A stretch of DNA of 64,000 nt from a virus (IMGVR_UViG_3300032236_001530:32001-96000); one strand, 5' to 3'. Shown: positions 732-61,772, numbered from the stretch's first letter. Notes: generated by a model from the sequence alone, not told the origin. Translations and numbers: made by a program.

Positions 732-1409
732 TTATATTCCTAAATTATCTAATTTTCTTCTACGAATTTCTGTTTTTATTAGAGCTTGTAATTTTTCTTT
801 TTTTGATTCAGTATAACCTTGAACAGATATTTCACCATGTTCATCTTGTTTAGCATATCTTTTTAATTCTTCTGCGTAAAAGTAATTAATAAACGTAGTA
901 TCATATTCAAAATTACTTAACTCTTCTACCAACTCTTTAGTTTGAAATTCAACCTTCTTAAAATTCAAAATAATCAAATCAACATCTATATAAATTATCT
1001 TATCGGTATACTTATCAATCAAATCTGAATAAAATAGATTCATATACTCAACCACATAAGGTGATTGAATTTTCATATAAAGTGAGTTACAATGAACTTT
1101 CCATTTTTGATATTCACCAGAATCACCAGAAACACTAGATAATAATTTTAAATCTTTTTTGTTTTTAAGAAACCATCTAACCCTTTCAATATCTTCTTTC
1201 CATTTTTCATCTATCAAACCAGCATCAAACAAACCAATTAGTAAAGATGGAAAAAGTGCGTTCAAATCTATTTGAACTACATCTTCATATAGATTACCTC
1301 TACTGAAATCACCTAAATGATGTATTCTTTTATCTCTAACAACCCAATTATTAAAACTAAGACCTTCTAATTTTTTTAGACGTTCTATATAATCCTGTCT
1401 TAGTTTCAT
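732..1409 (-). CDS. Miniature family B DNA polymerase-like protein with C-terminal RxxKLxxLG tag
   Basis: DLNALFPS (motif A), KVHCNSLY (motif B), YIDVD (motif C) in the correct order in 225 aa. Confidence 0.6.
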   Translation of the reverse strand: MKLRQDYIERLKKLEGLSFNNWVVRDKRIHHLGDFSRGNLYEDVVQIDLNALFPSLLIGLFDAGLIDEKWKEDIERVRWFLKNKKDLKLLSSVSGDSGEYQKWKVHCNSLYMKIQSPYVVEYMNLFYSDLIDKYTDKIIYIDVDLIILNFKKVEFQTKELVEELSNFEYDTTFINYFYAEELKRYAKQDEHGEISVQGYTESKKEKLQALIKTEIRRRKLDNLGI

Positions 1410-1861
1410 ATTCCTAATTCTTTTAACTTTTCTTCACGAACTTCTGATAAAAATCCTTTTGGATAAAACTGAACAATAAAACGATATCCTTGATTAGTCA
1501 TATAATCAACTCTACTATTCTCAAACTTTGTTTCACCTGAGTTAGAACCGGCTCTTGGCATAACTTCATCTGATGGATCCCAAAACATATTAACGAATCT
1601 ATATTCTAATGTTTTGCGCCATTTATCTTTAGCATTATCAATGTAAGGGTTTGTATTATTTTGATCGTAGATTGAATTAGAAATACCATCTTCAAAATTA
1701 AATGTAACTTTGTAACAGAACTCAATTTCTGGATAACCAGTGTAATATTTATCCATTCTGAATAAATTAACAGATTCTACTTTACGAGAGTGACCATCAA
1801 CTTTAATTGATTCAATTACCTCTTTCCACTTATCAGTTAATATTTTAGAAAATACATCCAT
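1406..1861 (-). CDS. Hypothetical protein, C-terminal tag family (REEKLKELGI)
   Basis: ORF, coupled to neighbours, shared C-terminal motif. Confidence 0.75.
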   Translation of the reverse strand: MDVFSKILTDKWKEVIESIKVDGHSRKVESVNLFRMDKYYTGYPEIEFCYKVTFNFEDGISNSIYDQNNTNPYIDNAKDKWRKTLEYRFVNMFWDPSDEVMPRAGSNSGETKFENSRVDYMTNQGYRFIVQFYPKGFLSEVREEKLKELGI

Positions 1862-2196
1862 TACAATCCTAATTCTTTTAATCTTTGTTCTCTTACTTCT
1901 TGTATAGAAGGTAATTTAACTCTGGTTGATTTACCTTTTGTACCATCTGATAATGTAGGCGCATATTTACCTGCCTTTGATATACCAGATGTACGAGAAA
2001 ATAGTTTCTTTTCTTTAATTGGAAGAAATCCCTTCATAGATGAAAATTGAGCTTGTGTTATTTCAATTATCTCATGATGTAAATATTTTCTACAATCATC
2101 ACTTTCACCTACCCAACGAGCAAGCAAATGAAGATGGTACTGACCATTATTCTCAGTTATATAATCACCACTATTTGAGTTTATCCAATAATTCAT
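1861..2196 (-). CDS. Hypothetical protein, C-terminal tag family (REQRLKELGL)
   Basis: ORF, shared C-terminal motif. Confidence 0.75.
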   Translation of the reverse strand: MNYWINSNSGDYITENNGQYHLHLLARWVGESDDCRKYLHHEIIEITQAQFSSMKGFLPIKEKKLFSRTSGISKAGKYAPTLSDGTKGKSTRVKLPSIQEVREQRLKELGL

Positions 2197-2197
2197 A

Positions 2198-2563
2198 TTA
2201 TACTAATCTACAAGGTATTTCTAAATCTTCTGATAGGTAATAAATAGCACATACTCTGTGATACCCATCAGCTATAATTAAGCGATTTTCACTTCTAACT
2301 AAAAGCACAGGTGATAACATTTCACCTTTCTTTACTTTCTTTAAATTCTTTTTAACATGGATATTATCCTTAGGTAACATCGGTAATCGAGAAGCTCGCA
2401 AAACATCTTTTGCTTTCTTTTTAGTTGTATCTGCTTCCCTTAAAGACTTAACAATCTTAGTTACTTTTGCTTCATTAAAATGTAGGTCTAAGTAGTCTGA
2501 TGCTGCCGGAAAATCATGTTCCTCTGGATTTTCTAACCAGATTGCTTTTTTACTTTTCTTCAT
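2198..2563 (-). CDS. ParB/Srx N-terminal-like domain protein
   Basis: PVLLV...IIADGYHRVCA motif. Confidence 0.6.
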   Translation of the reverse strand: MKKSKKAIWLENPEEHDFPAASDYLDLHFNEAKVTKIVKSLREADTTKKKAKDVLRASRLPMLPKDNIHVKKNLKKVKKGEMLSPVLLVRSENRLIIADGYHRVCAIYYLSEDLEIPCRLV

Positions 2564-2939
2564 TTAATTTATCTTTTATGAATTTTTTACATTTTTTATA
2601 ATACTTATTTTCAAACTCTCTGGCTTGAACCTCAAATGGATTTAAGTCATATCCCCATTCTTCATCTAATTTACAATAAATTCTATTATCAGGAAGTGAA
2701 GGCATTTGGAGAAAATGACAATATTCATGAATGATTGTTTTTATTATATCTTTTTTTGTTTTACAATTTAATGGGAAAACTTTAATAACTCTATTAACAT
2801 AAGAGCCATAGTATCTTTTATATCTTCTATCATAAGAAATAACAAGGTCACAATCTTTGGTTTTCAAAGGTGAGCCCCATTTTAATTGACACCATTTAAA
2901 TGCTAATTCTGCTACCTTAGTGGATTTATCTTGAGTCAT
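2550..2939 (-). CDS. SprT-like/zincin metallopeptidase (start likely MTQDK)
   Basis: TIIHEYCH plus NPFEVQA; promoter TATCTTTG at 2944-2951 with TTTG 20 nt upstream. Confidence 0.65.
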   Translation of the reverse strand: MTQDKSTKVAELAFKWCQLKWGSPLKTKDCDLVISYDRRYKRYYGSYVNRVIKVFPLNCKTKKDIIKTIIHEYCHFLQMPSLPDNRIYCKLDEEWGYDLNPFEVQAREFENKYYKKCKKFIKDKLNEEK

Positions 2940-2990
2940 GTTACAAAGATACAAAAATTATTTACAATAAACAAATTAATATATACAATT

Positions 2991-59918: not shown

Positions 59919-60171
59919 TATAACCAGAAATCTAAATATTGAATCAAAAAAACATCTTTATAGATTAATTAACACCAATGAAGAGTTGTCATCTAATAAG
60001 ATTTTTTTACCATTTATGGATTCAATGCAGGATTATTTTTATGGTTGTAAATGTAATATAGATATTTATGAATTAAAATCAAACGAACAATATAATAGTT
60101 TATCAAGTAATCAAGAAGCGTTATTAAAACTAAAAGATTACTTTAGATGTCAAGAGATTATTTTTAACTAA
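59911..60171 (+). CDS. Hypothetical protein
   Basis: ORF followed by terminator 60170-60198. Confidence 0.6.
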   Translation: MASITRNLNIESKKHLYRLINTNEELSSNKIFLPFMDSMQDYFYGCKCNIDIYELKSNEQYNSLSSNQEALLKLKDYFRCQEIIFN

Positions 60172-60215
60172 AAAAGCCACTTAATGAGTGGCTTTTTTAA
60201 TTTAGTTTTGATAGA

Positions 60216-60632
60216 TTATTGAACTGAAACAACTTCAATATCAAAAATAAGTTCTTTACCAGCAAAAGGGTGATTGCCGTCAATCACTGCGTGATCTTCA
60301 TGCACTTCTTTAACCATAACATTAACTGGCATACCGTTATCAGCTTGTGCTTGTAATGACATACCAACTTCAACTGGTCCAGGTAATTGAGAACTTGGTA
60401 CCTTTACTACTAAGTCTTCTCTAACTTCACCATATGCTTCAGCTGGTGGAATGCTTACAGTTACTTTATCTCCAACATTTTTACCAATAATAGCATTTTC
60501 AAAACCAGGAATAATTTGTCCTGTTCCTACTGTAAAAGATAAAGGTGCTTTTCCTTCTGATGAGTCGAAAACTTCACCATCAGTGAGTCTTCCTGTGTAA
60601 TGCACATTTACTGTGCTTCCATTTTGTATCAT
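60216..60632 (-). CDS. FKBP-type peptidyl-prolyl isomerase (SlyD-like)
   Basis: VHYTGRL.DGEVFDSS, IIPGFE, DGNHPFAGKEL. Confidence 0.95.
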   Translation of the reverse strand: MIQNGSTVNVHYTGRLTDGEVFDSSEGKAPLSFTVGTGQIIPGFENAIIGKNVGDKVTVSIPPAEAYGEVREDLVVKVPSSQLPGPVEVGMSLQAQADNGMPVNVMVKEVHEDHAVIDGNHPFAGKELIFDIEVVSVQ

Positions 60633-60718
60633 TTGATTATTCTTTTTTTATTTGTATATAATAAGTATAATAAAGTTTATCATATTAAACTTTTATTGTA
60701 AAATTTGATAAAAATATC

Positions 60719-61396
60719 GTGAGAGAATCTTTTACGGAATATAAAAAAACATTAGAACAAAATCTAATGAACATCAGTTATTTATATAACGGTGATGTTA
60801 TTTCGTCTATAGATTCTAGCTATACTGAAATTAAAAACTCACCTCTCACATCACCGAGTTTTATGATTAATAGTATAGTTAACATATATCAAGAAAGCTT
60901 TGATATAATGGTTGGTAAGTCTAAAGAGTTTGTGATACCAGAAGAATCTATAGCTGGCTTAGGTAAACAAGGAAATCTATTTGATAAAATATCTGAATTA
61001 GGTATAAAAGCAAATTATATTTTTTGTTCTGATAAAGGTAAAAAGTTATTTGGTTTGAGTAGCAACTTCTCAACAAATACAAGTGCTTTCCCATCATACT
61101 TTTATAGTATAGACAAGTATGTTGGTCTAAATATAGAAGTATTTAATTCACCTCTTATAAAAGAAGACAGTGATGAAATGGTTCTGTATGTTTTTGATAG
61201 GTCTATACAGAGTTTAGTATATTCTATACAAAATATGGAGTATTCTATTGTTCCAAATGATAAAGATAACTTTGAGTGGAATCACACAATAAGTTATAAA
61301 TTATATGATTGTAAATTCAACTCATATAAATTATCAATAAGAAATGTCTCTCGATTGAGGCACGATAAAATTAATAAAATATTAGATGGTAATTGA
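60719..61396 (+). CDS. Hypothetical protein, C-terminal tag family (RHDKINKIL)
   Basis: ORF. Confidence 0.7.
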   Translation: MRESFTEYKKTLEQNLMNISYLYNGDVISSIDSSYTEIKNSPLTSPSFMINSIVNIYQESFDIMVGKSKEFVIPEESIAGLGKQGNLFDKISELGIKANYIFCSDKGKKLFGLSSNFSTNTSAFPSYFYSIDKYVGLNIEVFNSPLIKEDSDEMVLYVFDRSIQSLVYSIQNMEYSIVPNDKDNFEWNHTISYKLYDCKFNSYKLSIRNVSRLRHDKINKILDGN

Positions 61397-61772
61397 TTTG
61401 TCAGATATACCTTTTGTTCATTCCGGTAGTTATCGAGACGAGTGTAGAGTAAAAGGTAATAAACTACTAACTGAGCTTAATAGAATAAATATTAATATGT
61501 CAACTAAACATAATTATATAATCATACCGGTTAGTATTTATAATCTTTTAGAGATAAATGATAGTTTTATATCTTTAGAAAAGTCCGCTAATACATATGA
61601 TGGTCCAATTAAAGTTGGCTTGATTGGTGAGTTTATTTGCTATTTAGATATACATTTACCGCCAAATGAAATTATTGTTTCTTGGGATAGACAAACATCA
61701 AGAAATGTTAAATTAGATTCTATATTAAATGATACATTTGAAAAAGAAAAAAGAATTAAGGTTATATCTTAA
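61386..61772 (+). CDS. Hypothetical protein resembling a T4 gp23-type capsid segment, tag motif RNVKLDSIL
   Basis: NYIIIPVSIYNLLE..KVGLIGEFICYLDIHLPPNEIIVS. Confidence 0.55.
   Translation: MVIDLSDIPFVHSGSYRDECRVKGNKLLTELNRININMSTKHNYIIIPVSIYNLLEINDSFISLEKSANTYDGPIKVGLIGEFICYLDIHLPPNEIIVSWDRQTSRNVKLDSILNDTFEKEKRIKVIS

Follow-up and report, generated by a model that had tools for sequence, protein, structure and literature searches.

A short C-terminal motif shared by many otherwise unrelated small proteins of Mahaphage-type huge phages: a candidate docking label

Poxvirus ankyrin/PRANC (F-box-like) adaptors and the Dot/Icm effectors of Legionella form variable repertoires in which a shared C-terminal element plugs into one machine; these elements are domains of 20-50 residues or looser signals, and they are read by eukaryotic SCF ligases or by type IV secretion systems. 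Phage scaffolding proteins have C-terminal helices that bind the coat protein, and the tail of the HK97 protease is C-terminal too. The internal proteins of phage T4, which are late proteins, carry an N-terminal capsid-targeting sequence (CTS) that directs them to the prohead core (PMC3012670). In SspB, the C-terminal XB peptide binds the N-domain of ClpX (PMC3983244), and the targeting peptides of Family 1 encapsulins, which are C-terminal with the consensus SDGSLGIGSLKRS, are read by an HK97-fold shell (PMC8346489). Here we describe a short C-terminal tag, R-x-x-K-(L/I)-x-x-(L/I), on small proteins encoded in a 64,000-nucleotide stretch of viral DNA (the window), which comprises bases 32001-96000 of the single 155,228-bp IMG/VR virus record IMGVR_UViG_3300032236_001530 (the contig; 30.8% G+C). 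The tag is a real, large-scale feature, and none of the papers found in our literature searches describes it. Coordinates are those of the window unless the contig is named.

A preliminary description of the window had quoted 19 tagged C-termini, all of which were found at the ends of open reading frames (ORFs). Its total of more than 20 tagged proteins holds for the whole contig, with 38 ORFs, but not for the window alone, which has 19 plus a twentieth protein with a 12-residue tail. For these counts we used the broad pattern R..[KQRN][LI]..[LIVF], ending 0-5 residues before the C-terminus, which occurs at the ends of 38 of the 238 contig ORFs, or approximately one protein in six. This is far above the chance level of about one seen with shuffled C-termini, the comparison on which the preliminary description had staked its claim: the expectation is 0.61 (maximum 3) when whole proteins are shuffled and 1.13 (maximum 4) when the last 20 residues are shuffled. 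A stricter pattern gave 26 matches on the contig against 0.01-0.07 expected, and internal matches of the broad pattern were at chance level (18 compared with 15.8 expected). In the complete 635-kb genome LR745206.1, which was analysed whole, 124 of 990 ORFs were tagged, compared with 5.1 expected (maximum 9). Furthermore, a 17-column hidden Markov model (HMM) of the tag found 61 sites in the independent genome LR756502.1, which had been left out of its building, and none in LR756501.1 (735 kb) or Tenacibaculum phage PTm1 (225 kb), both of approximately 31% G+C and together spanning 960 kb. AT-rich composition does not, therefore, account for the motif, because the shuffles gave low counts and two AT-rich control genomes gave no HMM matches; a composition artefact is ruled out on these grounds. 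The tag is also widely distributed. A DNA pattern of one common spelling matched many IMG/VR contigs of 23-476 kb, and the HMM found 5-40 sites on each of the contigs recovered in this way. Among 80 IMG/VR loci analysed, 43 had at least one ORF with a terminal motif and 20 had two or more; in the densest of them, nine of 15 ORFs were tagged within 5 kb. All of the short IMG/VR contigs with the tag had completeness ratings of 8-40%.

The Arg of the tag is encoded on the contig by AGA (26 cases), CGT (eight), AGG (three) and CGA (one), which is close to genome usage, and the Leu, Ile and Lys codons at conserved positions likewise match genome usage, both on the contig and in LR745206.1. Since codon choice at the conserved residues is that of the genome at large, selection acts on the protein and not on the DNA, and codon usage rules out a DNA-level signal. 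The genes lie in cassette-like arrays that show much turnover among related phages, as might be expected if the conserved element were a piece of DNA or RNA, such as a site where recombination shuffles cassettes or one that serves processing or regulation, or else a by-product of AT composition. However, in addition to the varied codons, including AGA and CGT for Arg, only about half of the 27 bases are fixed, given the variable positions; the motif lies strictly in frame at ORF ends; and matches are close to zero in shuffles and in the two control genomes. We regard the likelihood of any explanation of this kind as negligible.

When 162 tags are aligned on the Arg (position 0), the logo reads [K/I/L] at -4, [S/Q/E] at -3 and a hydrophobic residue at -1, followed on the downstream side by D/E/N at +1 (131 of 162), K at +3, L/I at +4, N/K/D/E at +5, I/L at +7 and L/G at +8. 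The tail after the motif is mostly one to three residues long (range 0-14), tails of 1-14 residues are polar, and the distance from the Arg to the stop is 9-11 residues in 139 of the 162 tags. With the rest of the motif fixed, Arg fills position 0 in 110 cases and Lys in none, in a proteome that is rich in Lys. AlphaFold predicted the tag to be helical in both of the proteins modelled (of 75 and 225 residues; see below), and on a helical wheel the invariant Arg is central on the face formed by positions -4, +3, +4, +7 and +8. If the models are right, such an Arg-centred face is typical of a peptide that docks in a groove with an acidic pocket, and not of a helix that anchors in a membrane or lies buried in a core. 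Within one orthologous family (62-87% identity), the endings -KIL, -NILN, -ELGI and -QIGI interchange while L63 and R67 are invariant. Similarly, in the gene for the 225-residue protein, the tag is nearly invariant across 120 orthologues of 68-100% identity, and it is thus under purifying selection. Internal copies of the tag had also been reported. Two of these are conserved in the LR745206.1 orthologues: REYKIDQLL at residues 121-129 of a 230-residue protein (40490-41182, minus strand), and RNVKLDSILND in a 128-residue protein (61386-61772, plus strand), where a 12-residue tail follows the tag and the orthologue is built alike. The third, RNEKLEFLL at residue 120 of the protein encoded at 9459-10112 (minus strand), is indistinguishable from chance.

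The proteins that bear the tag are otherwise unrelated, as had been supposed: BLASTP comparison of 44 bodies returned only two related pairs, and there were no Pfam or PHROGs domains. Pfam searches of 117 tagged proteins (39 from the contig and 78 from LR745206.1) gave no credible domain, PHROGs searches of the 39 contig proteins gave nothing usable, and only 32 of 162 tagged proteins have any homologue within the contig and LR745206.1. A tagged protein of 193 residues had no usable match in the ESM Atlas, and one of 151 residues had no relative in the IMG/VR locus search. Tagged proteins are small (60-250 residues; only two of 268 proteins of at least 250 residues are tagged) and rarely hydrophobic, and their conservation is not below that of other small ORFs. 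In LR745206.1, an untagged protein of 707 residues contains repeats that match a tagged protein of 83 residues.

Two of the tagged proteins could be assigned a predicted fold. For the 75-residue protein (contig 3844-4071), AlphaFold gave a five-stranded SH3-like barrel followed by a helix at residues 63-74; the Foldseek matches, SH3-like and YorP, were all weak (E > 0.2), and the tag helix, with a predicted local distance difference test score (pLDDT) of 78-87, is placed next to the barrel. The 225-residue protein is the product of a tagged core gene (60719-61396, plus strand) and has a predicted HK97 capsid fold over residues ~1-210, with the tag helix at residues 211-222 (RHDKINKILDGN). Foldseek gave 28 matches to this model at E < 1e-3, and among the matches listed all are shell proteins of capsids or encapsulins, either natural or engineered; against T4 gp23, VIA-align gave a Z of 9.4 over 180 residues. 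The best structural alignments end at approximately residue 210, and the tag helix has a pLDDT of 53-57 compared with 85-90 for the body. This protein is distinct from the clade's gp23-like major capsid protein (~570 residues) and much smaller, and it has 227 homologues, on contigs of up to 817 kb, in which the tag is almost unaltered. Homologues are present in the tag-bearing genomes LR745206.1 and LR756502.1 and in two further tag-bearing genomes (G002 and G005). From the unrelated bodies, together with the low-confidence helix outside the HK97 fold, it follows that the tag is portable, and it is found on at least two predicted folds (SH3-like and HK97).

These models also bear on the idea that the tagged proteins are one very old and hugely expanded paralogous family, in which only a structurally essential C-terminal helix is still recognizable and there is no common reader. 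The tandem arrays and some paralogous groups fit such a history, as does the confident placement of the helix beside the barrel in the 75-residue model. However, the tag is found on two unrelated folds and lies outside the HK97 core at low confidence, and the bodies vary in length from 60 to 250 residues and show no detectable similarity. A structural helix would not need an Arg that is never swapped for Lys, nor would a concerted change of the tag across 41 unrelated groups in another lineage (see below) be expected. We therefore consider common descent of this sort quite improbable.

That other lineage is represented by a more distant relative, LR756504.1 (636 kb), in which the tag was counted in 150 kb (spans 1-100000 and 586364-636363; 367 ORFs). 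Here a variant, R-K-x-[KR]-I-[EDN]-[NK]-L, is found at the ends of 69 ORFs (19%), many of them in tandem arrays. Position +1 has shifted from Asp/Glu/Asn to Lys (chi-square p = 6e-31), position +4 to Ile and position +7 to Leu. When each body cluster is represented by a single member, leaving 41 unrelated proteins, Lys is present at +1 in 25, Ile at +4 in 37 and Leu at +7 in 36. A concerted shift on dozens of unrelated proteins would be expected if the tag co-evolved with a single partner, and the existence of this variant suggests, from sequence comparison, one common reader that co-evolves with the tag.

Thus, we think that the tag is probably a portable docking or address label, a C-terminal amphipathic helix that would be read by one common partner. 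The preliminary description had already proposed a portable docking helix; what stands of that proposal is a portable helix, conserved at the protein level, which reflects neither shared ancestry nor a DNA signal, while its comparison with poxvirus F-box proteins holds as a functional analogy only. In the mechanism that we envisage, the motif [K/hydrophobic]-x-x-hydrophobic-R-[D/E/N]-x-K-[L/I]-[N/K/D/E]-x-[I/L]-[L/G], followed by one to three (rarely up to 14) residues, would form a helix appended to well over 100 small, soluble and fast-turning-over proteins per genome in one Mahaphage-type branch of Bacteroidota phages. The common reader would grip the face that carries the Arg, K+3, L/I+4, I/L+7 and L+8, and would handle all of these unlike proteins as one class during a non-late phase of infection, perhaps by tethering baits to a machine, by timing their destruction or by placing them in the cell. 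A reader that co-evolves with the phage lineage would be encoded by the phage, or by the host in a form that varies from host to host.

The arrangement of the tagged genes agrees with the coupled runs that had been reported. On the contig, ATGA stop/start overlaps were found for 45% of tagged ORFs compared with 6% of other small ORFs, and in LR745206.1 for 28% compared with 12%. Host-type promoters had been placed at the heads of several runs, and three runs are indeed headed by perfect Bacteroidota-type sites (TTTG-N17-21-TAnnTTTG), of which the contig has 27 compared with eight in shuffles. One such promoter-like site (...TTTGTATCTTTG; span approximately 2944-2976, minus strand) heads a run on the same strand from 2954 to 732, with tagged genes at 1861-2196 (111 residues, ending REQRLKELGL; the LR745206.1 orthologue ends RDEILKQLGIK), 1406-1861 (151 residues, REEKLKELGI; the next gene is overlapped via ATGA) and 732-1409 (225 residues, RRRKLDNLGI). 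Another (...TTTGTATATTTG; span approximately 10102-10134, minus strand) heads the run from 10112 to 6850. The first gene of this run, at 9459-10112, has an untagged end and is the one with the chance-level internal copy; it is followed on the minus strand by tagged genes at 8881-9462 (193 residues, RNLQLERLLK), 8576-8884 (102 residues, RDSQLENLLS), 8292-8579 (95 residues, REYKLNQLV), 7894-8295 (133 residues, RDKKIETILC), 7559-7900 (113 residues, REVKLNKIGV), 7359-7562 (67 residues, RNKKIEQIWE) and 6850-7368 (172 residues, RRVKLENLGL). On the plus strand, tagged genes lie at 48084-48656 (190 residues, RSKRLNNILNL; the LR745206.1 orthologue ends RSRRLNEIL), 48658-48963 (101 residues, RDFKLKKVLS), 48960-49325 (121 residues, RDYKINLLHEI), 49246-49833 (start uncertain, RDNNLDEIFNG) and 49826-50227 (133 residues, RNHKLEKIIK). 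The remaining tagged genes are at 23858-24217 (minus strand, 119 residues, RDNKIDEILK), 24926-25111 (plus strand, 61 residues, RESNIDKVLEN, with a terminator-like hairpin directly after it and an identical tag in the LR745206.1 orthologue) and 44352-44972 (minus strand, 206 residues, RETLLNKIGIN, in which +3 is Leu and not Lys).

The excess of overlaps raises the question of whether the peptide might act in cis on the ribosome, with the nascent chain slowing termination and promoting re-initiation on the overlapping gene, in a host without Shine-Dalgarno pairing. Both the overlaps and the narrow range of distances between Arg and stop would fit. Yet for 42-62% of tagged genes there is no downstream start that overlaps, and some genes stand directly before terminator hairpins; the tag persists in orthologues in which tails of 6-14 residues follow it, and internal copies are conserved, although known arrest peptides work only at an exact spacing. 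The variant of LR756504.1 would, moreover, demand a different exit tunnel. An action on the ribosome thus seems very improbable to us.

A second sequence element separates the tagged genes from another group. The motif AATATATA is found a few bases 5' of the start codon in tail and baseplate genes and in 41-48% of the genes whose products bear a different, N-terminal tag, and it precedes 0 of 42 and 5 of 161 of the C-terminally tagged genes. In the form (T)AATATATA it sits 5-25 nt before start codons, with 72 occurrences on the contig and 304 in LR745206.1, and it resembles a T4-late-type promoter in sequence; examples lie upstream of contig positions 97963, 102464, 104131, 107276, 109276 and 111406, and of window positions 25597, 42504-43765 and 45646. 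The N-terminal tag, MK(Y/H)LKx(F/Y)(N/K)E, occurs on 25 contig proteins and 63 of LR745206.1, and resembles the T4 CTS. Genes that encode it lie in the window at 25597, 27217, 42504, 43517, 45646, 46383 and 61769-63622, with many more outside it. As had been noted for the shorter form MKxLKxFNE, no C-terminally tagged protein of the contig carries the N-terminal tag (0 overlaps compared with 4.2 expected, p = 0.01), and in LR745206.1 only one does (9.0 expected, p = 0.001). We read these patterns as two putative address classes: a late, N-terminal class, which is T4-CTS-like and fits the gp23-like capsid, and a non-late, C-terminal class.

What might the reader be? The most concrete candidate, although only a lead, is the phage's own cell-type Clp protease. 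In this case the tag would be a degron that clears non-late proteins on schedule, or an SspB-like tether that delivers bound host targets, for which the docking of SspB on ClpX through a C-terminal peptide is a precedent (PMC3983244). The contig encodes a cell-type ClpP (PF00574, 224 bits; contig 113206-113862, minus strand), and cell-type ClpPs, often in two copies, are encoded by tag-bearing LR745206.1, LR756502.1 and LR756504.1 and by six other tag-bearing genomes (G003, G005, G006, G007, G010 and G013), while the complete, tagless genomes LR756501.1 and PTm1 have none. Furthermore, both this phage and LR745206.1 have a tagged gene immediately 3' of clpP, yet without homology between the two bodies, and LR756504.1, with its variant tag, also encodes ClpX (412 bits). 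The match to this ClpX starts at model position 53, and the zinc-binding N-domain may be missing. Against a Clp reader, ClpP was not found in two tag-bearing genomes (G015, 281 kb, and G019, 176 kb), both of which may be fragments, and ClpX was not found in the contig, LR745206.1 or LR756502.1. The tag is unlike the XB peptide RGGRPALRVVK or ssrA-type ends, its tails of 0-14 residues argue against recognition of a free C-terminus, and co-occurrence within a single clade carries little weight. We hold the Clp system to be a tentative and rather unlikely answer.

Alternatively, the tag could be an encapsidation signal that binds the prohead interior or core and loads small proteins for injection, as encapsulin cargo peptides or the T4 CTS do for their bearers. 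The major capsid protein of these phages is T4 gp23-like. There are known examples of HK97-fold shells that take up cargo through C-terminal peptides (PMC8346489), and in T4 a short conserved tag serves to load a range of defence-countering proteins (PMC3012670). In addition, the tagged proteins are small and one of them has the HK97 fold itself. This small HK97-fold protein is also a candidate reader: it co-occurs with the canonical tag, but it bears the tag itself and was undetected in LR756504.1. However, the near absence of the late-type motif before tagged genes, and the host-type promoters found instead, are not what loading into a prohead would lead one to expect; the T4-CTS-like N-terminal tag is already present on a separate, mutually exclusive late gene set; and more than 100 cargo species per virion would be unprecedented. 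Loading into the capsid is, in our judgement, distinctly unlikely.

Several observations weigh against a docking label read by one partner. All of the tag-bearing genomes belong to one clade, so that arguments from co-occurrence are not independent. The helix of the 75-residue protein, with its fairly high pLDDT, may pack on the barrel and be partly structural, and a simple terminal address label does not obviously account for the presence of the tag on a capsid-fold protein or for the conserved internal copies. The excess of ATGA overlaps after tagged genes leaves room for a translational role. Finally, the 'late' and 'early' classes are putative ones, drawn from promoter-like motifs and not from expression measurements.

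The window comes from a 155-kb piece of the genome of a Mahaphage-type huge phage. Its gene content includes a baseplate-hub protein, a fragment of a family-B DNA polymerase, a helicase and many host-like genes. A tail-region protein of 636 residues has its best matches in LR745206.1 (635 kb, 47% identity) and LR756502.1 (642 kb, 44%), with weaker matches in LR756501.1 (735 kb), LR756504.1 (636 kb) and Tenacibaculum jumbo phages. The largest phage genomes reported by Al-Shayeb et al. (2020) are of 634, 636, 642 and 735 kb and belong to the Mahaphage clade, with predicted Bacteroidetes hosts (PMC7162821). CheckV estimated the 155-kb record to be 83% complete. Nevertheless, it is a fragment, because a contig of 471,672 bp carries proteins identical to ones of the 155-kb contig, and because the gene for the gp23-like major capsid protein of the clade was not found on the 155-kb contig; completeness estimates of the CheckV type look unreliable for this clade. 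Other features of the window are of separate interest. One phage protein (30302-32212, plus strand) combines a cohesin domain with a type IX secretion C-terminal sorting domain, and the sorting domain, as a sequence match, suggests a Bacteroidota host that bears this secretion system and export of the phage protein. A GOLLD RNA (270 bits; 27529-27936 and 28514-28887, minus strand) adjoins a tRNA-Met gene and a tRNA-like gene to which ARAGORN assigned an odd two-base anticodon. A collagen-repeat protein of 1166 residues (PF01391, 338 bits) is encoded at 10154-13654 (plus strand), with a nearby cluster that includes a protein with a family-9 glycosyltransferase domain, and two of the host-like genes, at 4162-5700 and 53846-55633 (both minus strand), are for a protein with a glutamate synthase domain and a histidine kinase of the GAF-PAS type.

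A single label of 9-11 residues is thus present on 12-19% of genes in several of the largest known phage genomes (the 155-kb fragment and the genomes of 635 and 642 kb, with the variant in that of 636 kb). Huge phages are mostly genetic dark matter, and the tagged proteins have no recognizable domain. Should a single partner read the label, identifying this partner would place hundreds of orphan proteins in a common pathway at once, and tag-GFP or the tag peptide would offer a simple way to study how uncultured megaphages infect their hosts. Use as a portable targeting peptide is a further possibility for the tag. As the shift from Asp/Glu to Lys at +1 predicts a compensating change of charge in the reader, a computational search for the reader is feasible.

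How does this tag compare with the systems described at the outset? Like the T4 CTS, it is a short conserved terminal peptide that is the sole conserved part of diverse, fast-evolving small proteins, in a phage with a gp23-like capsid. However, it is C-terminal (0-14 residues from the end) where the CTS is N-terminal and is cut off by the prohead protease, its genes lack a late-type motif (a difference in motifs, not in expression data), and it occurs on more than 100 proteins where the CTS occurs on a handful; a CTS-like N-terminal tag coexists with it on a mutually exclusive set of proteins. With SspB-type tethers and C-terminal degrons, the tag shares a variable body with a short C-terminal peptide that docks (here, as proposed) on one machine, and the phage encodes ClpP, but it differs in being helical with an invariant Arg, in having no similarity to the XB or ssrA sequences, and in ending in a polar tail and not in a non-polar extreme C-terminus. 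Similarly, Family 1 encapsulin targeting peptides are short C-terminal peptides on otherwise unrelated proteins, and a small HK97-fold protein is encoded here, but their consensus is unrelated to the helical R-[DEN]-x-K-[LI]-x-x-[IL]-[LG]. Encapsulin cargo genes adjoin that of the HK97-fold shell to which their peptide binds. The HK97-fold protein encoded here bears the tag itself, most tagged genes lie tens of kilobases from its gene, and they are scattered over the genome and do not form a late class. To the PRANC and F-box adaptors of poxviruses the likeness is functional only, as Pfam searches of the 117 tagged proteins revealed neither domain and the element is of 9-11 residues. A bacterial counterpart of the viral F-box proteins can nonetheless be imagined, in which each of more than 100 fast-evolving baits per genome would bind a different host (defence) protein and plug, via the shared helix, into a phage-encoded machine such as Clp that destroys or sequesters the targets, with reader and tag co-evolving; taken as a whole, we judge this picture unlikely. 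In summary, short terminal labels on diverse proteins are already known, and the tag of these huge phages departs from each of the systems compared in that system's own defining feature of sequence or position.

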